Assembly (NCBI GenBank): GCA_020059605.1
Contig: JAGVBT010000044.1
Coordinates: 42,554-106,553, forward strand
Origin: Deltaproteobacteria bacterium
GTDB lineage: Bacteria; Desulfobacterota; BSN033; UBA1163
Reading direction: 5' to 3'
DNA: 64,000 nt
Position 1 is the stretch's first letter, and every line of letters begins with the position of its first letter. Shown here piece by piece: positions 38,887 to 47,994 of the stretch. A model generated the notes under the pieces. The model made no database searches. It was not told the DNA's origin and saw nothing but the letters and a program-made list of their open reading frames with translations. Made by a program: the position numbers and the translations under genes.

Positions 38887-38955
38887 ATTTCGGAATGCGG
38901 ATTGCGGAAAGCAGAATGCAGAAGGGAGAAGCAAACAGAAGGACTAGTAAGCGCA

Positions 38956-39234
38956 CTAAAGCCTCTTTATATATCGATCTGCCTCTTTTTTGCTGATAAC
39001 CCTGAGGATGACGATTTTCATAGACTGAATTTCGAAGAAGGCCCGAAACTTATCAATTCTCAGTCTGTAAAAAGTAGTCTTTTTACCTTTAATCTTCTTG
39101 ATCAATTTTCCCCTTGGGAAAGGGTTTTCTTTAAGGATCTTTAAATCCGAAACTACTTTTGTAACGATCCCCATTCCCAAATCATCCAGGTCCCTTGAGG
39201 CTGCCGGTGAGAGTTCGATCTTGAACCTATCCAT
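38956..39234 (-). CDS. RelE/ParE-family type II toxin
   Basis: 92 aa with the ...FYRLRIDKFRAFFEIQSMKIVILRV... RelE-like C-terminal pattern. It overlaps the upstream antitoxin. Confidence 0.65.
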   Translation of the reverse strand: MDRFKIELSPAASRDLDDLGMGIVTKVVSDLKILKENPFPRGKLIKKIKGKKTTFYRLRIDKFRAFFEIQSMKIVILRVISKKEADRYIKRL

Positions 39235-39490
39235 GCTTTGACTTTCTCTTTTTCAGATATTCATCGATTTCTATACCGCCAAGCTCCAGATATTCCTCTC
39301 TCGCTTTCTCCAGGGCGGCCTGAAACCTGGGATTGTTTTCAAGTAAGTAGTCTTCAAAATCGTCCTCTGAAATGCCTTTGATAATAGCCGTCGGTTTTCC
39401 CCTGGAGGTTACAACGACCTCCTCCTTTTCAGCCACTTTCAAAATTTCCGAAGTTTTGTTCTTAAGTTCCCTGACATTTGCAAATCTCAT
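39227..39490 (-). CDS. Phd/YefM-family antitoxin
   Basis: 87 aa with the Phd-like N-terminus MRFANVRELKNKTSEILKVAEKEEVVVTSRGKPTAII. There is an 8-nt overlap with the toxin gene. Confidence 0.7.
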   Translation of the reverse strand: MRFANVRELKNKTSEILKVAEKEEVVVTSRGKPTAIIKGISEDDFEDYLLENNPRFQAALEKAREEYLELGGIEIDEYLKKRKSKHG

Positions 39491-39586
39491 GGTTTTCTCC
39501 TTGTAGCTATATTCGTAGCTACAATATAAATCAATTATTTATTTCCGTCAAGCAAATTCCCCCCTTACCCCAATGCTCTTCACTTA

Positions 39587-39661
39587 AGCCGTTCGTGCTG
39601 AGCTTGTCGAAGCATGAACGGCTTAGCGACACACCCTTCGACAAGCTCAGGGTGAACGGGG
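39587..39661. repeat. Two inverted copies of the family-2 repeat forming a long composite palindrome
   Basis: GCCGTTCGTGCTGAGCTTGTCGAAGCATGAACGGC and CCCTTCGACAAGCTCAGGGTGAACGGGG. In the shadow ORF 39478..39738 it translates as ...LSLSKHERLSDTPFDKLRVNGD.... Confidence 0.7.
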
Positions 39662-39772
39662 ACAGCCTAACTGAACAGCACCACCCCTTACCCTCTTTTC
39701 TAAAGGGGGGATTGCAAACAAATATATGCTCTGAGTAATAAAAGAGAAAATTTGAACCCTCCCCCGATTTAT

Positions 39773-40705
39773 CTAAGATAAAAAATCTATGGCCAGCTTG
39801 TTGAACTTCTCCGGATACTCTTCGTGCGGGCTGTGTCCGGCCTTATCAAAGATCACCAATTTTGATCCATTCCAAAGACCATTTAATTTTTGTGACCGAT
39901 CTAAGGGAACGGCTTTATCCTCCCTACCGTGAATGATTAAGGTCGGTATGCTCATTTTGGACAAAAGGTTGGCTTCTTTTTCAACATACGGCTCTTTTAA
40001 GACATTACGTAGGATAAACATAAAACCAGCGGAAGATCCTTTGATACAAAGCGGCTGCAAGACTTCTTTACAATACTCCTCGGTTACCTTGTTTTTATCG
40101 TAGAACCATATCGTTTTAATATTGTTCTTCATCAAAGCATCTCCGGGAATGGCATTCATAAATTCACCAATAAAAGGGAACTGATAAATCTTGCCAATTG
40201 TCGTCATCGGCTGAGGGATAACGGTTGGGTCAACTAAAATAAGCCGATCAACCCTTCCGGGATGATGGGCAGCCACATAAACTGAAATCCCTCCACCCAT
40301 GGATTGTCCCACAAGAGTGGCTTTTTTGATATTCAGGGCATCCATGAATCCCACGATCTGTTTTCCATATCGTTCGAAGCTGTATTCCTTTTCCCCCAAT
40401 CTTTCGCTATACCCCCATCCCCAGAGGTCGATTGCGTAGACCTTAAATTTTTCGGCCAGGGCATCAATATTTTTCTTCCACATGACCGTATGATAGAGAA
40501 AGCCATGAATCAGTATGATGGGCGGGCCATTCCCGGCTTCCACATAGTGGACCTTTTTGCCATCTACGGTGACAAATTTCCCCTTGGCAAATTTTTGGAC
40601 AGCTTCCTCATAGGTACAGGTTTCTTTAGATGTCAATTGTGGGAGAATGATGATGAATAATACCAATGCGCCGACGATAATTAATAATGTGATGAATAAT
40701 TTCAT
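39773..40705 (-). CDS. Alpha/beta hydrolase-fold protein, membrane-anchored or secreted
   Basis: An N-terminal TM or signal segment and the nucleophile elbow GQSMGGG are present. The segment is AT-rich. Confidence 0.75.
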   Translation of the reverse strand: MKLFITLLIIVGALVLFIIILPQLTSKETCTYEEAVQKFAKGKFVTVDGKKVHYVEAGNGPPIILIHGFLYHTVMWKKNIDALAEKFKVYAIDLWGWGYSERLGEKEYSFERYGKQIVGFMDALNIKKATLVGQSMGGGISVYVAAHHPGRVDRLILVDPTVIPQPMTTIGKIYQFPFIGEFMNAIPGDALMKNNIKTIWFYDKNKVTEEYCKEVLQPLCIKGSSAGFMFILRNVLKEPYVEKEANLLSKMSIPTLIIHGREDKAVPLDRSQKLNGLWNGSKLVIFDKAGHSPHEEYPEKFNKLAIDFLS

Positions 40706-40916
40706 GGTTTCCTCCTTCTTTTCATTATGAACTGAGTCTTATCGGCTTGTCATTCCGGGGTTGAGTTAGCCTGCCCCGTACTCGATACGGGGGAATCCAG
40801 TGTTTTCCGGGATTTCCGCTTTCTCGGGAATGACGCCTTTTGCTACGATAAATGTCGCTGTGTATAATTCCTGTAATTTATTCCGAATTATTTTAAATTT
40901 GAACCCGTCCCCGATT

Positions 40917-40955
40917 TTACTATGGCTTTGCCGAGATTCTCATGTTAATTGGCAC
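40917..40955 (-). pseudogene. Degraded duplicate of the 3' end of the cyclase-STAND gene (fragment 1)
   Basis: The reverse complement encodes HENLGKAI..., matching the C-terminus of the 42476..45844 product ([14 protein letters not shown]...). Confidence 0.6.
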
Positions 40956-41031
40956 CTGTCTTTAATCCCATATTTGACAATTGTTACAAATGGGATTATC
41001 ATTGTAAACAAAACAAATTGGAGAAATCGAC

Positions 41032-41307
41032 ATGGCTGAAACTAAAATCTTGAAAACAGATTCGAGGGGACGAGTCGTTCTCCCTCCTCCTTTTCGAAGG
41101 GAATCTTTGTTCGAATATGCCGTTAAGGGTGATCAGATCATCCTCTATCCAGTCCGGACAGTCCGAAGATACCCCGATATGTCAGACCTGCCTGAAGAGG
41201 TTCTCTCCCCGGATTGGGTTGAAAGAGAGAAGAAAATTAATGCAGATACGCGACCCGGAATCGTTGCTCCAACCCCTTCAAAGGCGCTCAGAAAAAAGAA
41301 GAAATGA
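41032..41307 (+). CDS. AbrB/MazE/SpoVT-family antitoxin
   Basis: KILKTDSRGRVVLPPPFRRE is a swapped-hairpin motif. It is followed 6 nt later by the toxin gene. Confidence 0.6.
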   Translation: MAETKILKTDSRGRVVLPPPFRRESLFEYAVKGDQIILYPVRTVRRYPDMSDLPEEVLSPDWVEREKKINADTRPGIVAPTPSKALRKKKK

Positions 41308-41313
41308 CTTTCT

Positions 41314-41625
41314 ATGCCAGCGAAACCATTTCTCTTTGAACTCCACTTCGAAATCATCTTCTTGGAAAGCTATTCCCATTTGAAACCGGGTGAACAAAAA
41401 GCGATTGATAAAGCGGTCAGGTTTCTCAGTGCAAATCCTCGACATCCATCCCTCAATGTTCATAAGGGGAAAAACGTCAAAGGAAAGTATGCCGAGGGAG
41501 GAAATGATGTCTTCATCGCATATGCTTCGAAAAGTTTAAGACTCACCTTTGAATACGGTCCTCAACCGGGCATGATCGCCCTACGCAATTGTGGGCATCA
41601 TGAATCATGCGAAAGAAAAATGTGA
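41314..41625 (+). CDS. RelE/ParE-superfamily toxin (probable)
   Basis: 103 aa. The pattern ...KGKNVKGKY...DVFIAY..SLRLTFEY is RelE-like. It pairs with the AbrB-like gene. Confidence 0.45.
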   Translation: MPAKPFLFELHFEIIFLESYSHLKPGEQKAIDKAVRFLSANPRHPSLNVHKGKNVKGKYAEGGNDVFIAYASKSLRLTFEYGPQPGMIALRNCGHHESCERKM

Positions 41626-41649
41626 ACCCTCCCTAATTTCTTACAAAAG

Positions 41650-41760
41650 GGCTAACATTTCTTTTTCATATTTTTCGACCCAGCCGTCGGCGCCGCATTC
41701 TTTCAAGATTTCTATGGCTTTGCCGAGATTCTCATGTAGATTGGAACCCTTCTTTAATTT
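41650..41760 (-). pseudogene. Degraded duplicate of the 3' end of the cyclase-STAND gene (fragment 2, with its own stop)
   Basis: The reverse complement encodes ...[38 protein letters not shown]. The authentic end is ...[32 protein letters not shown]. The identical run TCGACCCAGCCGTCGGCGCCGCATTCTTT starts the copy here (41673-41701) and at 42510-42538. Confidence 0.75.
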
Positions 41761-41801
41761 CTACTCTTGACGTAATCAAAAAATTACGCTATTTTGATAG
41801 G

Positions 41802-42122
41802 GTGATTAAGCCAGACCCCTCTCTTGAGCCCGATTGGGATGAGGACAATATTGACCATATTGCCGAACATGGTCTTCGGCCGGAACAGGTTGAAGAAGTC
41901 TATTATGGTGAAGGGCCATTTCCTACTCTCGCTCTTAAAACTAAAAAACAAAAGGGTCGAGTTGCCGAGTATCGTTATCGGTTATGGGGGACTGATGCAT
42001 CGGGAATGTATATCGAAGCCATTATTGCCCCATACCCTGAATTTAGGCTTTGGAGGTGTGTTACCGCATTCCCCATGTCACCCTCCACACAGAAAGCCTA
42101 TTTAAGGAGAATCAAAAAATGA
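41802..42122 (+). CDS. BrnT-family (DUF497) ribonuclease toxin
   Basis: 106 aa. ...WDEDNIDHIAEHGLRPEQVEEV... is the BrnT pattern. Confidence 0.6.
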   Translation: MIKPDPSLEPDWDEDNIDHIAEHGLRPEQVEEVYYGEGPFPTLALKTKKQKGRVAEYRYRLWGTDASGMYIEAIIAPYPEFRLWRCVTAFPMSPSTQKAYLRRIKK

Positions 42123-42406
42123 AGAAAATTCCTCTCAAAATCAAAAAGAAGCTAAAAAGCGAGGCTAAAACATGGGATTCTTCTATTTCTCAAGAGAAGC
42201 CCAAAGAGGTATCCAGGCTGATCGAAAAAGCAGATTTATTTGTCGCCTACCGGCCTCCTCGGCAACCCGTTTCAGTGCGCTTAGATCCCTTCGACCTTGC
42301 ATTATTAAAGCGGATTGCCCGTAATAAAGGACTCCCTTTCACCCAGCTTATGTCCATGTGGCTGCACGAAAAAGTTGAGCAGGAGAAAACCAGAGTCGGA
42401 GCTTAA
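42119..42406 (+). CDS. BrnA-family antitoxin
   Basis: The start is at ATG 42119, with an ATGA overlap on the BrnT stop. The C-terminal RHH-like ...VSVRLDPFDLALLKRIARNKGLPFTQLMSMWL is present. Confidence 0.55.
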   Translation: MKKIPLKIKKKLKSEAKTWDSSISQEKPKEVSRLIEKADLFVAYRPPRQPVSVRLDPFDLALLKRIARNKGLPFTQLMSMWLHEKVEQEKTRVGA

Positions 42407-42475
42407 GTATATGCTCCTGAATCCCATTAATCCTCTAATGTAAACCCATCCCCAATTTCTACTATTCCGCTAATT

Positions 42476-45400
42476 TCACAAAGGCTGAGCCAATACTTTC
42501 TCGTACTTCTCGACCCAGCCGTCGGCGCCGCATTCTTTGAGAATCTCTATGGCCTTGCCGAGATTCTCCTGGGCTTTTAATCTATCCCCTTTTCGTTTAA
42601 ACAACTCTGCATAAAGAGCATAATCATTTCCCAGGTGGAACATCGTTCGATTTCTCTGATCGGCTTCAATGGCCTTCTGAATCCAATACTCTGCTTCAGA
42701 TAAGTGCTGGTCATCAATGTTAAGCAGAATCTCTCCGATAAGTCTTTGCATCCCACCTTCGGCTGCCTTTACTTTATTGTTTCGTGAATGCACATACAAA
42801 GATTCCAAATCCACACCCTTTTCTTTATTCATCACTTTCGATCTTGCTATAGCAACTCTTCCCCACCCCACCCAGGAAGGCCATAAACGATTGCGCTCGA
42901 AAGCCGAAATCCCTTTTTCGAAACGTTCTTTAGAGCCCTGGAAATTTCCCATTTCAAAATAGGTATCTCCCAGGTGATATTGGTTTCCCGCATCCCAGCC
43001 AGAAATATTAATCTTTTCACAAAATTCGAACCCCTTCAGCAGGTATTTTTCAGCTTCTTCAAGCAATCCTTTCCCATAGCAGGAAGTTCCGTGACTTGAA
43101 TATGCTATTGCCTTTGAATAAATATCACCGCTCTCTTCAGCAATCTGGAGGCCTTCATTCGAAGTCTTGAATTGCAGATCTATTCTCCCATGGTACCAAT
43201 GAGAAAAATAGGCCAAATTACTCATCGTTACCGCAATGCCCCAAAAATTTTTTGCTGCCACATTAATATCAATAGCTCTTTGTGAAAATTTAATTGCTCT
43301 TTCAAATTCGCAGTTCGCCCCTAAAGCATATCCAAACCAGCTACTTGCTAAAACTAAACTAACAATATCTTTTATCTCTTCCGATATTTTTAGGGCTTCC
43401 TCAAATGCTTTAAATGCCTCTGGATAATTTTCTTCTCCAGACCAATAGTATGTTCCGAGAATCATGTATATGTGAGAAAGTCTCCTTTTATAATCACGTT
43501 TGATGGCCAAATCAATAATTGGATCTATGGCTTCTTTGGCCTCAACAAAATGGTTCATTTGAGCGATATAAAGTCCAAGAACCGTCCTGGCATCGACAAT
43601 CTGTTTTTCAATATTCGCTGCCTGGGTTAATCGCTCAAGAGATGCTATTCTCGTCTTTGCATAAGCAATCGCATCATTAAACGAAGCTGTCTTCTCGGCC
43701 CTCCTGCTTGCCAACCTCGAATACTCAGCGCATTTTGAATAATTCTCACTCAAGAGGTAGTGTCCGGATAATACTTCATAACATTCACTTAAATTATCCT
43801 TGTAAAGTTCCTCGATATTGTTCCCAATCTCCTCATGAAGTTTCTTCTTCCTTTTGGCCAAGATGGAATTATAAACCACCTCACGAGTTAAAGCGTGTTT
43901 GAAGACATAATTCGATTGAGGGTATATGCCTCTTTCATAAAGAAGTTCTGAGTCTTTAAGGATAGAAAGGTAAGAGAGCAGGTCTTTTTCTGGGAGGCCC
44001 ATAATGCGGTTTATCAATGGATAACTAAACTCTCTCTCAATGACAGACCCGCTTTGGAGCACCTCTTTTGCCCTCTCAGGTAAGGAATCTACTCTTGCCA
44101 TAATCACATCCTGGAGTGTTAAAGGAATGGTCAGCTCATGGATATCTTTTGATAAACGAAATTTGTTATCTTCTCTCTCTATGATTCTTAATTCTCTCAG
44201 GGACTGTATAAACTCTTCAATGAAAAAAGGGACTCCTTCTGTCTTCTCCAGGATCAATTCCTCAAGTGATTTTTCAATCTCTTTTGTCCCTAAAATATGG
44301 GTTGCCATCTCAAGGCTCTCCCTATTCGAGAGCCGATGCAACGTTAATTGATTGTGATAAGACTTTGCGCCCCAGGTGTGTAAAAACTCAGGCCGGTAGG
44401 TAAATATTAATAACACCCTTGCTCCCGGGATGCTCTCCAAATTGTTTCTTAATACGTCCTCTGAACTCTTATCCAGCCAGTGCAGGTCTTCAAATGCCAT
44501 CACCAGAGGCCGTATCTCAGACCCTCTAAGAATGATCCGTTTTATTGATTCAATAATCCTATCTTTCTTTGATTCAGGGCTCATGGAAATCTGTTCGATC
44601 CCACTATCCTTGACTGAGAGAAGCTCAAGGAGATATGGGAGAGTCGAGGCTTCATCGACTCCTATTAATCTCAACCCTCTTGTGACTTTTTCTTTGATTT
44701 CCTGGTCCCCTTCTCCTTCATGAATATCGAAGTTTGACTTCAGGATGTCTATCACCGGGTGATAAGCTACCCCCCTGCTGTAGGAGAGGCATTTCCCTTC
44801 CAAAAAGGTTACATTTTCGTTGACTATTGCCTTCCTGAATTCATACAAAAGCCTCGATTTACCACAACCGGCCTCAGATACAATAGAAAACGCCTGGCCC
44901 TTTCCTGATTTGGCTCTCGTAAATCCATCGAGCAGAAGCTCAAGCTCACGTTCCCTTCCAACAAAGGGAGTCAGCCCGCGCTCAGCACTGACATCAAATC
45001 TTGTCCTTCTCGTGCTGGGAGCGATCACCTGAAAAACCTTTATGGGTTCTTCCTTGCCCTTAACATTTTTTTTCCCCAAAGCCTCAAACCTAAAAAACCC
45101 CTCCGTGAGTTTGAAGGTATCTTCGGTCACATAGGTTGTTCCTGGTTCTGCCAAGCCTTCCATTCGGGATGATAGATTCACCGTATCTCCAACCGCCTTG
45201 AACTCAACCCGAAGATCATTACCCAAGCTACCCACCACCACAGGACCTGTGTGAATACCAATACGCATCTTAATTGGCGTTATTCTGCTTTCGATTTTGA
45301 GCTGATCGCTGAACTTGCTCATCTCCCGATGGATGGTTAATGCAGATCGAATTGCACGCTGTGGAGCGTCCTCCAGAGCAATCGGCGCCCCAAAAAGAGC

Positions 45401-45844
45401 CACAATCCCATCACCGGTTAATTCGTTGACAGTCCCTTCATAATCATGGACCTTGTGGATGAGGATTTCGTAAACCTGATCCATCATGGAGTAAGCTTCC
45501 TCAGGACCGAGCTTTTCGGTAAGTCCCGTATACCCCTCCATGTCACAGAACATCACCGTGACCTGTTTGCGTTCACCTTCAATTCGGTCGCGTTGAGATA
45601 AGATTTTTTCGGTTAGACCCCCGGGAAGGTATTTTTGAATCTTGGCTATCTTCTCATCAAAGGAAAGTTCTCTGGTGAGCGGTTTTGAAGGAAGGGTTAA
45701 GTCGTGGCCACACTCACCACAGAATTTGAATTGAGGAGGGTTTGAAGAATTGCAATGGGGACAGATCTTTTCTAATTTGGCACCACACTCCCCACAAAAC
45801 TTCAAGTTTTCGGGATTTTCAGTCTGACATTTTGGGCATTTCAC
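42476..45844 (-). CDS. Multidomain signalling protein: double zinc ribbon, class III adenylate/guanylate cyclase, STAND-type AAA ATPase and TPR repeats
   Basis: The N-terminal CPKCQ...CGECG / CPHCN...CGECG is a double zinc ribbon. The cyclase core has [10 protein letters not shown]...[11 protein letters not shown]...[10 protein letters not shown]. The Walker A is [11 protein letters not shown]. The C-terminal roughly 450 aa are TPR-like. The gene is AT-rich. Confidence 0.8.
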
Positions 45845-45983
45845 TCTTTTCCCCCTTCAATTGCATGATACTAAATAAATTGGGTGCCCCTAATTTTATT
45901 CGGCTGGCGGAAGGGTCTTCATCCGAAACGCCTTGCTCTATAGGTTTCCAGCACTGAAAAGATAGTCATCCTTGATACGTTCC

Positions 45984-47378
45984 TCATCGATTAGCATCTG
46001 TTCCATGAGCAGGCATACCCAAAAACTCACCCGTGATGCGTAGCACAGCATCCGCATCACCAAAGAAAGGCATATGAATACTTCCTTCTAATGGAACGAA
46101 GCGAGAGTTTGGAATCAAAGATGCCATCTCCCTCCCAAGATGGAATGGCATAGCCTTGCAACCCTTACGATGAATCACCAATGTAGGAACATGTAATCTG
46201 GGGAGAAGGTCTGTCACATCAAGGTCATATGTAAGATCTAACAATTTTGCAGCCATTTCTGCAGTAGCTGCCTCACGCTGTAAACGGATAACCCATTTGA
46301 GGGTAGAAACATCAGCGCCGGGTAAGAACATATCAGCCAAGGCCTTAGAACCAACTCCCCAGGCAGAACGAATCAGGGATGTAAAAGACTCCTTGAATTC
46401 CTTTGTAGTTATTGCCTCACCATTAGCATAAGAATCGAATAAGATTAAATGTGAAACACGTCTTGGATACTTAATTGCATAAGCGATGGCAACAGGACCA
46501 CCACAAGAAAATCCACACAATGCGAAACGTTTGAGCTTAAGATGGTCAATAACAGCCTCCAATGACCGAACCTCCGACTCTAATGTAAATTCTGTTCTGT
46601 TCCGTTCAGAAAGGCCACAGCCGTGTCTATCGTAAAGTACAAAGGTTTGATTACGAGTTCCTTTCTCTAAGTATTCACGTGTAAATGGATGTTCCCATTG
46701 TAACTGTAAATGACTGACCCATGCCGGAGGAAAAACCAAAAATGGTCCTTGGCCTACCACGGAGTAAGCGATGCGGACTCCATCAACGGTAGTGCAGAAT
46801 TGAATATGCTGGTCTATCACCTCCGCTGGAGAAAAAGTTCCACGCCCTATCAATACTCGATAAACCCTCACCGGCTTTGCAATATTCTTAACCGTTTGTT
46901 CGCCAAGATTCTCATAGCTTAACCCAAGTTTACCCTCAACTTGATCATAAGCTGTTCCTGAGATGCAGATCCCTCCGCCATTGGCCAGGCTCTGAACCCG
47001 AGCGGTGACATTGACTCCGTCACCGTAGATCCGCTCCCCTTCCTCAACAACATCTCCAAGATTGATCCCGATTCGAAATTCCATCCTGCTCTTTTCAGGT
47101 AGCTCAGCATTCTTTAGTTTGAGTTCCTTTTGGATTTCCACTGCACATTGCACAGCCTCTACGACACTAACAAATTCAGCTAAAAGATTATCTCCAGGGG
47201 AATCTACGACGCGCCCTTTGTGCTGTCTGATGAAGTTGGCCATGATTTCTCTATAAGTGGTTAGAGTCCGGATGGTCTCAATTTCATTCTCCTCCATGAG
47301 GCGGCTGTAACCTTTAACATCTGCACTGAAAATGGCAGCAAGCTTACGTTTAACCTCTTGGCTGTTCATGAAATTCAC
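45984..47378 (-). CDS. Class III adenylate/guanylate cyclase fused to an alpha/beta hydrolase domain
   Basis: The cyclase core has FSADVKGYSRLM...GDNLLAEF...RIGINLGDVV. The hydrolase part has GFSCGG (GxSxG) and downstream catalytic residues. Confidence 0.75.
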   Translation of the reverse strand: MNFMNSQEVKRKLAAIFSADVKGYSRLMEENEIETIRTLTTYREIMANFIRQHKGRVVDSPGDNLLAEFVSVVEAVQCAVEIQKELKLKNAELPEKSRMEFRIGINLGDVVEEGERIYGDGVNVTARVQSLANGGGICISGTAYDQVEGKLGLSYENLGEQTVKNIAKPVRVYRVLIGRGTFSPAEVIDQHIQFCTTVDGVRIAYSVVGQGPFLVFPPAWVSHLQLQWEHPFTREYLEKGTRNQTFVLYDRHGCGLSERNRTEFTLESEVRSLEAVIDHLKLKRFALCGFSCGGPVAIAYAIKYPRRVSHLILFDSYANGEAITTKEFKESFTSLIRSAWGVGSKALADMFLPGADVSTLKWVIRLQREAATAEMAAKLLDLTYDLDVTDLLPRLHVPTLVIHRKGCKAMPFHLGREMASLIPNSRFVPLEGSIHMPFFGDADAVLRITGEFLGMPAHGTDANR

Positions 47379-47559
47379 CCTCTAAAGGTTCTTAGGTTGG
47401 AAGAAGAGAACGCTGAAGAAAATATGAATCCGTCCTCAGTTGTGAATGATATAGGTTTATCGAGATGATCCACCTAACAGAACAAGAGGTTCTATTAAGT
47501 GGCAGATAGGCACATTTTGAGGCTCTTTCTCATTTAGAATACTGTGGTAACGGTGTCCA

Positions 47560-47994
47560 TTACTGAATTACTGACCCTGTCTCAGCTTTTCGAAAATACT
47601 GGCAGAGGGAGATCAGGATCTTTCTCTGGAGGCCCGGAACCGTATCAAGCAAATGGTCAAAAGATTTGCTGTTTACGATCAACAGGGTCATATCAGTTTC
47701 AGCAATGACCGTTGCGGTTCGGGGGCCCCTGTCAATGAGGGAGACCTCGCCAAAAAAGTCGCCTGAAGCCAGACGGTTTATCACCTTACCGCCTTTCTCG
47801 ACTCGGGTTTTACCCTCTAAGATGAAAACGAATTCCCATCCCATATCCCCCTGCTCGGCCAGGACCTTGCCAGCTTTGACCGACAACTGATCTGCATACT
47901 TGGCAATCTCGTTCAGATGGCGGTTGCTAAGATTACTAAACATGGGTACCTTTTTAAGGAGTTCGACCTTTTCGGAACGCCGGCGGAGTAGCAT
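47560..47994 (-). CDS. Standalone cyclic-nucleotide-binding domain protein
   Basis: 144 aa. The CAP-like cNMP pocket is ...FGEVSLIDRGPRTATVIA.... There is no output domain. Confidence 0.7.
   Translation of the reverse strand: MLLRRRSEKVELLKKVPMFSNLSNRHLNEIAKYADQLSVKAGKVLAEQGDMGWEFVFILEGKTRVEKGGKVINRLASGDFFGEVSLIDRGPRTATVIAETDMTLLIVNSKSFDHLLDTVPGLQRKILISLCQYFRKAETGSVIQ

Follow-up and report, generated by a model that had tools for sequence, protein, structure and literature searches.

Copies of a cyclase-STAND gene end lie among predicted toxin–antitoxin cassettes in an apparently hypervariable islet of a Deltaproteobacteria bacterium

We analysed 64,000 nt of a Deltaproteobacteria bacterium (GenBank assembly GCA_020059605.1, contig JAGVBT010000044.1, positions 42,554 to 106,553; this whole stretch is hereafter the window), in which a gene for a cyclase-STAND protein is followed by an array of small toxin–antitoxin (TA) operons. 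Judging by sequence, the region at 38.9–42.5 kb appears to be a hypervariable cassette islet located between the 3' end of this multi-copy gene and a convergent PolX gene. The account that we favour, with moderate confidence, combines three processes: TA operons would insert at a spacer containing a short motif, here called M; STAND paralogs would decay to 3' stubs; and recombination would take place between the conserved gene ends. A dedicated site-specific integration system, as implied by an earlier reading of this DNA (the original prediction), is not supported.

The cyclase-STAND gene occupies 42476..45844 on the minus strand and encodes 1122 aa with a double zinc ribbon, a class III cyclase, an AAA_16 domain and TPR repeats (Pfam). 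It has more than 7,897 homologues, the best 120 of which are 77–86% identical and nearly all ~1122 aa long. Because the homologues share a conserved C-terminus across the family, the gene end is ancestral coding sequence, and the copies described below derive from gene ends. Named relatives belong to Syntrophaceae and to Thermodesulfobacteriota metagenome-assembled genomes (MAGs). Multiple STAND paralogs per genome are common, often in tandem and in many loci.

The live gene end (42476..42571, minus strand) consists of a core, GAGAATCTCGGCAAGGCCATAG, followed by the C-terminal codons and the stop. According to the original prediction, this end recurs twice in degraded form, and the data bear this out. 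The 22-nt core CTATGGCYTTGCCGAGATTCTC was found three times in the 64 kb (at 40920, 41712 and 42547), with 0.00 occurrences expected from shuffles. The 29-nt run TCGACCCAGCCGTCGGCGCCGCATTCTTT, said to be intact in the copy at 41650..41760, occurs twice (at 41675 and 42510). Copy B (41656–41736) is 85% identical to the live gene end over 81 nt. Copy A, described as the shorter (40917..40955), retains 50 nt, with the core kept and the rest of the gene end deleted; it equals copy B with an internal deletion that runs from GCCATAG to the post-stop motif. The copies are true duplicates of the gene end and not independent genes. Delimited as features, stub B (41641..41733, minus strand) comprises the core (41712–41733), the C-terminal codons and a stop (41641–41643) without a start codon; stub A (40920..40941, minus strand) is the core alone, the remainder of the gene end being deleted as far as the M copy termed M5. 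A full-length version of stub A was found in three related loci (L014, L080 and L082; L numbers denote related loci throughout).

M is a motif of ~25 nt that reads TAG-AAATYGGGGAYGGGTTCAMAT in gene sense. Its sites lie at 39750, 40897, 41620, 41734 and 42438, with weaker ones at 45871 and 47418, all in STAND orientation (minus strand). They are clustered: seven copies fall within 8 kb (39.7–47.4 kb), and the remaining 56 kb has no convincing one. Between 47.4 and 39.7 kb, a copy of M stands at most of the borders between units, but not on the distal side of a Phd/ParE cassette. M1 (42438..42461; nhmmer E 0.002) follows the STAND stop on its 3' side and lies immediately beyond the stop of BrnA. 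M3 (41620..41643) is composite: its 5' half, the stop plus GAAATTAGGGA, belongs to stub B, and the AbrB/RelE cassette ends with the 3' half of M3, GGGTTCACAT. M5 (40897..40922; nhmmer E 9e-6) lies upstream of the unit formed by a hydrolase gene and is kept in L006, L080 and L082, while M6 (39750..39775) starts at the hydrolase stop and forms the boundary of a swapped cassette. The weaker copies are M0 (45871..45897), an M-like element spotted by eye 27–53 nt upstream of the STAND start, and one at 47418–47439, upstream of a cyclase-hydrolase gene (nhmmer E 0.22). A terminator, a sigma-54 promoter and a dif site were considered as identities of M and rejected by inspection, which showed no hairpin, GG-N10-GC spacing or Xer dyad, respectively.

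Copies A and B both carry a 25-nt left arm (CATGTWRATTGGMACCYKTCTTTAAT on the plus strand, at 40942–40966 and 41734–41763; ATTAAAGAMRGGTKCCAATYWACAT in gene sense). Since the live gene lacks this arm, the two stubs have one and the same junction. The arm of stub A, LA (M4, 40942..40966, minus strand), is the 3' part of a split M followed by TAACAT and fused to the core; the same LA/core junction is present in L014, L080, L081 and L082. The arm of stub B, LA' (M2, 41734..41763, minus strand), is an M-type element followed by CTACAT and fused directly to the core, a junction kept in L001 and L101. The left arms were similar to M1, M3 and the M5 of L080 (p ≤ 0.003) and to three more M copies (p 0.008–0.04); similarity to M0 was not significant in the shuffle test. 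Because the left arms resemble most M copies and not STAND coding sequence, the repeating spacer unit can be defined as M + NNACAT / core, C-terminal codons, stop, M. The related short sequence that had been noticed 3' of each copy is thus real and is M itself, which also recurs at further array boundaries. Two other origins of the left arm were discarded. As degraded STAND coding sequence (KLKKGSNL versus KRKGDRLKA), it aligned no better than shuffles (p 0.05–0.9). Derivation from the 5' untranslated region of a paralog, fused at an ATG-AGA start or at a CATG microhomology, was plausible yet unsupported, as the similarity to M0 was not significant and no paralog with such a region was found. 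A metagenome scan for the left-arm/core junction yielded three contigs only.

The first of the two cassettes that these stubs accompany, AbrB/RelE, extends over 40961..41630 (plus strand) and contains an 18-nt operator palindrome in 40963–40998, an antitoxin gene (41032–41307) and a toxin gene (41314–41625), the two open reading frames (ORFs) being 6 nt apart. For the 103-aa RelE-like toxin, an AlphaFold2 model (predicted local distance difference test score 84) had RelE, YafQ, YoeB and ParE as its top Foldseek matches (E 3e-5 to 1e-3, template modelling score 0.6–0.77). Scores against Pfam were below the cutoffs both for the toxin (ParE-like_toxin, 17.5 bits; cutoff 28) and for the AbrB-type antitoxin (MazE_antitoxin, 22 bits; cutoff 24.7). 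On the strength of the structural model, 41032–41625 is probably a type II TA operon with a RelE/ParE-fold toxin and an AbrB/MazE-type antitoxin, with toxicity and neutralisation predicted. The pair and its operator are kept in three unrelated chromosomal contexts (L083–L100) at 78–87% nucleotide identity, and the DNA common to those contexts is exactly window 40961–41630, from the operator palindrome to the toxin stop, without gene end and without M. In the window this cassette splits one M, with GAAATTAGGGA on one side and GACAGGTGCCAAT-TAACAT plus the core on the other; rejoined across the cassette, the reconstructed M shows homology to LA', the arm of stub B.

The BrnT/BrnA cassette (BrnTA) extends over 41764..42463 (plus strand), limits that were taken from the DNA common with L027, L080, L105 and L110 (window 41764–42452, and to 42463 in L110). 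The genes for BrnT (41802–42122) and BrnA (42119–42406) overlap by 4 nt, with the antitoxin downstream. The 106-aa BrnT scored 15.2 bits (E 0.027) against PF04365 BrnT_toxin, for which the cutoff is 34.5, and this family was matched by 27 of 30 remote homologues (best 2.8e-16), so that the family assignment is transitive only. BrnA had weak matches to CopG_antitoxin, DUF6290, RelB and BrnA, of the ribbon-helix-helix type (E 5e-4 to 2e-2). The pair is kept in 198 homologue clusters. From these matches, the 106-aa toxin would be a divergent BrnT and the pair a predicted type II TA system. In the STAND-free loci L110–L114, an M-like element is retained beside BrnA. Sequence searches of PDB with both toxins gave no match, nor did exact-protein look-ups with the STAND protein and BrnA; the RelE-like toxin alone led to L001. 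The original call of two different, complete type II TA cassettes holds, although the window proteins lie below Pfam thresholds. Both cassettes occur in unrelated loci without any gene end and move without gene ends there; the gene end therefore does not belong to an obligate element.

Related loci differ in the content and order of the array. Written in STAND sense and abbreviated as RA (AbrB/RelE cassette), B (BrnTA), X (VapBC-like pair) and U (stub), the window reads STAND, B, U_B, RA, U_A, hydrolase, Phd-ParE, PolX. The simplest arrangements are STAND, PolX (L007); STAND, hydrolase (L002 and L061); and STAND, nitroreductase (L009 and L056). Others read STAND, X, hydrolase, Phd-ParE, PolX (L006); STAND, RA, U, hydrolase, DUF6364-PIN, PolX (L014, which equals L081); RA, U, X, hydrolase, Phd-ParE, PolX (L082); stub, B, U, nitroreductase, PolX (L101); and STAND_a, RA, U, B, STAND_b (full), X, hydrolase, DUF6364, PolX (L080). 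The segment from STAND to PolX thus holds from zero units (L007) to six (L080), so that relatives with zero, one and several cassettes exist, as the original prediction had proposed to look for, and RA and B stand in opposite order in the window and in L080. In L082, the stub and X are colinear with the intact gene end and X of L006; in L101, the stub and nitroreductase gene are colinear with the intact gene ends and nitroreductase genes of L009 and L056. Because of this colinearity, the stubs of L082 and L101 are old gene ends still standing on their native neighbours. The layout of the window is not an assembly artefact, since the same succession of BrnT, stub B, AbrB/RelE, stub A and hydrolase gene is found on L001, an independent JGI contig with 96% identity.

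The original prediction explained such arrays by serial site-specific integration into one attachment site. Spelled out, small non-autonomous elements, each with a TA operon and a replacement gene end, would enter an attachment core in the STAND 3' end with the help of a tyrosine or serine recombinase acting in trans. Accretion at the gene end and the old ends left behind, still on their native neighbours in L082 and L101, survive from that proposal; use of one attachment site was not shown and is not the most likely explanation. Several features do agree with it: two modules that differ in cargo have an identical left-arm/core junction, which is kept in at least five genomes; direct repeats equal to the 3' end of the target gene flank each insert; the stretch of homology begins 3 nt ahead of a 9-nt inverted repeat in the core of the live gene end (42539–42547 and 42560–42568, with a 12-nt spacer); and few events would be needed if L014, L080, L082, L101 and the window had arisen by single-step insertions at the core. 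The inverted repeat, however, results from the ENL and EIL codons and is disrupted in stub B and most paralogs, and third-codon (synonymous-site) entropy of the gene end is only slightly below that of the body (0.74 versus 0.89 bits), a weak signal of DNA-level constraint. No integrase, transposase or recombinase domain was found in any window ORF of >150 aa across the 64 kb, and the 74–149-nt inter-cassette units folded no better than shuffles into an attC-like structure on either strand (z −0.9 to +1.15), which agrees with the original observation that neither an integrase nor an attC-like site is visible. In L080, L027 and L105, moreover, what comes after BrnTA is a paralog, either full or differently deleted, and not the expected attR; in L080 it is a full STAND paralog and not a stub. 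The gene-end-free cassettes elsewhere and stubs with different junctions are further points against single-site integration, as are the mosaic gene ends described next, which imply several crossover positions. Taken as a whole, we regard it as rather unlikely.

The position of the crossovers can be followed through the partners of each junction. The LA/core junction has four downstream partners, namely the deleted end with M5 (window), the hydrolase gene (L014), cassette X (L082) and BrnTA (L080), and the LA'/core junction has two, AbrB/RelE (window) and a nitroreductase gene (L101). Because one junction joins different partners, the crossovers must have fallen beyond the junction, within the ~100-nt gene end. 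In that stretch, the core haplotype GCGATAGAACTCTT is common to the L080 Sa gene and L014, the tail GAAATGTT to L080 Sa and stub B of the window, and the tail TTGGCTCAG to the window gene and L027, both of which are then followed by BrnTA. As the gene-end haplotypes are mosaics, a single fixed crossover is disfavoured. Identity between the window and L027 was 77–78% in the STAND body, 87.5% in the gene end, 94% in the M1 flank and ~90% in BrnA/T. The same cassette is also found behind STAND bodies that are not orthologous: L014 has 92.7% identity to L067 but only 73.8% to L080 Sa, and the body of the window gene agrees with L002 S0 and not with S1.

STAND 3' stubs with other junctions, representing internal deletions of tandem paralogs, were found in L027, L004, L058/59, L061 and L105–108. 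The L027 stub retains the spacer that separates BrnTA from STAND_b in L080, fused to a STAND 3' coding stretch. In L004 (398–520), the N-terminal FCGECGA is fused to the C-terminal ECGADGW, and in L058/59 (L058 9144–9316) and L105–108 (L105 5918–6060) ~20 N-terminal codons and the gene end are retained; in the stubs of L004, L105 and L058, the ~20 N-terminal codons are fused to the last 15–35 codons. The L061 stub directly follows the hydrolase stop. Given these varied junctions, internal deletion of tandem paralogs is a frequent source of stubs. As a separate observation, the L004 junction falls in an ECGA motif shared by the N-terminal zinc ribbon (FCGECGA) and the C-terminus (KECGADGW), maybe a recurrent microhomology.

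Such decay might in principle account for the whole array, if tandem STAND genes ancestrally alternated with TA cassettes and the stubs are merely what remains of deleted bodies, with no insertion or movement of modules. Tandem arrays with interleaved TA cassettes do exist (L010, L080 and L105), deletion stubs with varied junctions are frequent, some with N-terminal codons or a 5' spacer, and the place that stub B occupies in the window is taken by a full paralog in L080. Two independent deletions, however, would not yield one junction with a homologous 25-nt left arm, and one junction with different downstream partners needs recombination. Nor can the reversed cassette order of the window and L080 be derived by deletions alone, and the distant relatives in which STAND stands beside hydrolase (L002 and L061), nitroreductase (L009 and L056) or PolX (L007) suggest a simple ancestral state. 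Decay without movement is therefore an improbable explanation of the islet.

M could also be more than a passive boundary. In L067, a gene for a Y1 transposase of the REP-associated tyrosine transposase (RAYT; REP, repetitive extragenic palindrome) type (1993–2751, 230 aa) directly follows the STAND stop, with ligA next on the other strand. It matches Pfam Y1_Tnp (4.8e-14) and NCBIfam REP_Tyr_transpos (5.7e-21) and is bracketed by a 28-nt inverted pair of M with 93% complementarity, the one such case found; it is the sole enzyme found associated with any part of the system. In L009 (6985, 7868 and 12782) and L056 (9306), M follows nitroreductase or short-chain dehydrogenase genes in the same orientation, so that M-bounded units are not confined to TA operons. 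One can thus imagine M as the recognition sequence of a trans-acting Y1 HUH transposase of the RAYT or IS200/IS605 type, with the stubs carried along as M-bounded units. The presence of M at most unit boundaries and always in one orientation, the L067 gene at the STAND stop inside its inverted M pair, the terminal M that BrnTA keeps in a STAND-free locus and the position of the AbrB/RelE cassette inside an M all fit this idea. On the other hand, no stem was seen within M by eye, unlike in REPs and IS200/IS605 ends, and M-containing units folded no better than shuffles; there is one RAYT association only, the window has no RAYT gene, and the AbrB/RelE cassette lacks M in three other contexts. 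M, which also occurs 30–50 nt upstream of STAND starts, could instead be a native inter-paralog spacer or a STAND regulatory site. Mobilisation through M consequently strikes us as doubtful, and still more so its extended form, in which M may be the recombination site of an undescribed Thermodesulfobacteriota cassette system whose M-bounded units are cut and joined by a trans-acting RAYT-type Y1 HUH transposase; this we consider a long shot.

The combination of insertion, decay and gene-end recombination would work as follows. TA operons would first insert in or beside the short M-containing spacer after STAND stops. Arrayed STAND paralogs would often shrink to 3' stubs via internal deletion. 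The last ~100 nt, whether of a live gene or of a stub, would then serve as portable homology, and we infer that homology-driven recombination between gene ends would move, duplicate, stack and reorder a gene end together with its downstream cassette, by unequal exchange, by gene conversion, or by loop-out and Campbell-type re-entry of a putative circle carrying one gene end and one cassette. In each event, the incoming end would complete the live gene and the older end would stay on its old neighbour. Because both window stubs share M + NNACAT / core, they would descend from a single ancestral junction propagated in this manner.

Several points weigh against this account. The homology is short (~100 nt at 85–93% identity, with a longest perfect run of 29 nt) and makes a poor substrate for RecA. 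Two modules with different cargo share a junction at the edge of the 9-nt inverted repeat, and a site-specific system would give the same. The step in identity at the gene end could equally reflect concerted evolution there or faster evolution of the STAND bodies. Circular or empty-site forms were not observed. The order of events is drawn from at most ~10 genomes, mostly MAG or metagenome contigs, several of which are cut at the critical place. Lastly, the model does not explain the role of M.

The STAND bodies themselves appear to have been exchanged or converted between paralogs. Comparing window 42476–45844 with L002 (84–3164 and 4773–8144), we found the window body to be 87% identical to S0, located upstream of the cyclase-hydrolase gene, versus 75% identical to S1 at the equivalent position (last 1 kb). 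The position of the window gene, between the cyclase-hydrolase gene and the hydrolase gene, matches that of S1. Upstream of the window gene (45984–47994) are a cyclase/alpha-beta-hydrolase fusion gene (464 aa) and a gene for a protein that binds cyclic nucleoside monophosphates (144 aa), which together with the STAND cyclase and the separate hydrolase make up a cyclic-nucleotide signalling cluster.

The remaining units of the islet lie downstream of stub A. The alpha/beta-hydrolase gene (39773..40705, minus strand; Pfam) counts here as one of the array units; in L002 and L061 it is native to the position next downstream of a STAND gene. A third TA pair, Phd/YefM-ParE (38956..39490, minus strand), is situated between it and the convergent PolX gene. 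As the PolX-proximal cassette (window 38910–39749, L001 243–1180), the window, L006 and L082 have Phd/ParE, and L001, L014 and L080 have DUF6364/PIN. Identity between the window and L001 was 96% on the hydrolase side and 89% at the PolX end, the replaced segment running from M6 to a point ~20 nt past the PolX stop. The interval from M5 to the hydrolase start contains an inverted-repeat element of ~85 nt (40749–40834, GTCATTCCGGGG...CGGGAATGAC) resembling a miniature inverted-repeat transposable element, and similar elements interrupt spacers in L014 (1320–1400) and L101 (6355–6435). A palindromic element (39597–39652, GCTGAGCTTGTCGAAGC...CTTCGACAAGCTCAGGG) is found between the Phd gene and the hydrolase stop. 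No known RNA family was detected with Rfam; AaHKsRNA41 matched weakly on both strands at 39591–39657 (23 bits versus a gathering threshold of 97), most likely by chance. The other window neighbours are housekeeping genes (PolA, RadA, PriA, GidB, PanB/E, POR and similar). Away from STAND genes, the AbrB/RelE homologues of L091–L100 reside in a variable island that adjoins a UPF0158 gene, with neighbours that differ from contig to contig and include HEPN_AbiV, SduA_C, DpnII-MboI, methylases and IS66- and IS4-type transposases, as well as a phage-type integrase in L098; this island is a hotspot of the defence type, unrelated to STAND genes.

Among known systems, integrative elements, comprising integrative mobilizable elements, cis-mobilizable elements and genomic islands (for example PAISt at bacA, PMC4057263; PMC5704250, PMC5812530), likewise accrete in tandem at the 3' ends of tRNA or protein genes: the incoming DNA restores the gene, old ends persist as direct repeats between inserts, and non-autonomous units stack. 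Here, in contrast, the window has no recombinase, the units are TA operons of 0.7–0.8 kb, the target is a multi-copy paralog family, and the other stub junctions, like the mosaic haplotypes, indicate events driven by homology, together with deletions, and not one fixed crossover. TA-only islets of Photorhabdus (PMC13617665) resemble the array in that type II TA operons are clustered without a mobile-element signature gene and turn over rapidly between core genes; in our locus, content likewise differs between close relatives, with Phd/ParE versus DUF6364/PIN beside 96% identical flanks. For those islets, homologous recombination at the flanking genes has been proposed, and the available part of that report reports no stacking footprint, whereas here the end of the neighbouring gene precedes each cassette and a 25-nt motif marks the boundaries.

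The modules of Acinetobacter that are bounded by dif sites (PMC13141974, PMC6449649) are also small, include many TA operons, BrnT/BrnA among them, are bounded by short repeated sites and are shuffled by enzymes that they do not encode. Their sites are 28-bp XerC/XerD sites, whereas M copies are all direct repeats and the array is chromosomal; inspection of the M alignment against the consensus showed no 11-6-11 dyad and no ATAA-N6-TTAT core. Sedentary chromosomal integrons share the linear arrays of small cassettes, rich in TA operons with their own promoters, and a repeated separator. They differ in that the repeats here are coding gene-end copies without an attC fold and the window has no intI; attI and Pc were not identified, no separate search having been made. 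Like M, REPs (PMC3390384, PMC5581495) are short extragenic repeats after stops, and an inverted pair flanks a RAYT-type gene in L067; M, however, is not palindromic, is clustered at one locus within 64 kb and forms direct repeats. Taken together, the array lacks the features that define integrons, dif modules and classical REPs.

The mechanisms by which TA islets form remain poorly characterised, according to PMC13617665. The present locus offers a readable footprint of how TA operons enter and pile up, with a gene-end copy before each cassette and relatives in empty, single, multiple and permuted states. The link between M and a single RAYT gene provides a concrete, testable alternative, and if M were such a recombination site, the resulting arrays of TA operons, single enzymes, STAND genes and gene-end fragments would resemble integrons but need neither an integron integrase nor attC hairpins. 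If recombination between gene ends is the true explanation, multi-copy families would serve as intrinsic landing pads through which addiction modules spread inside a genome and from one genome to another, and stubs would be a simple bioinformatic marker of past insertions.

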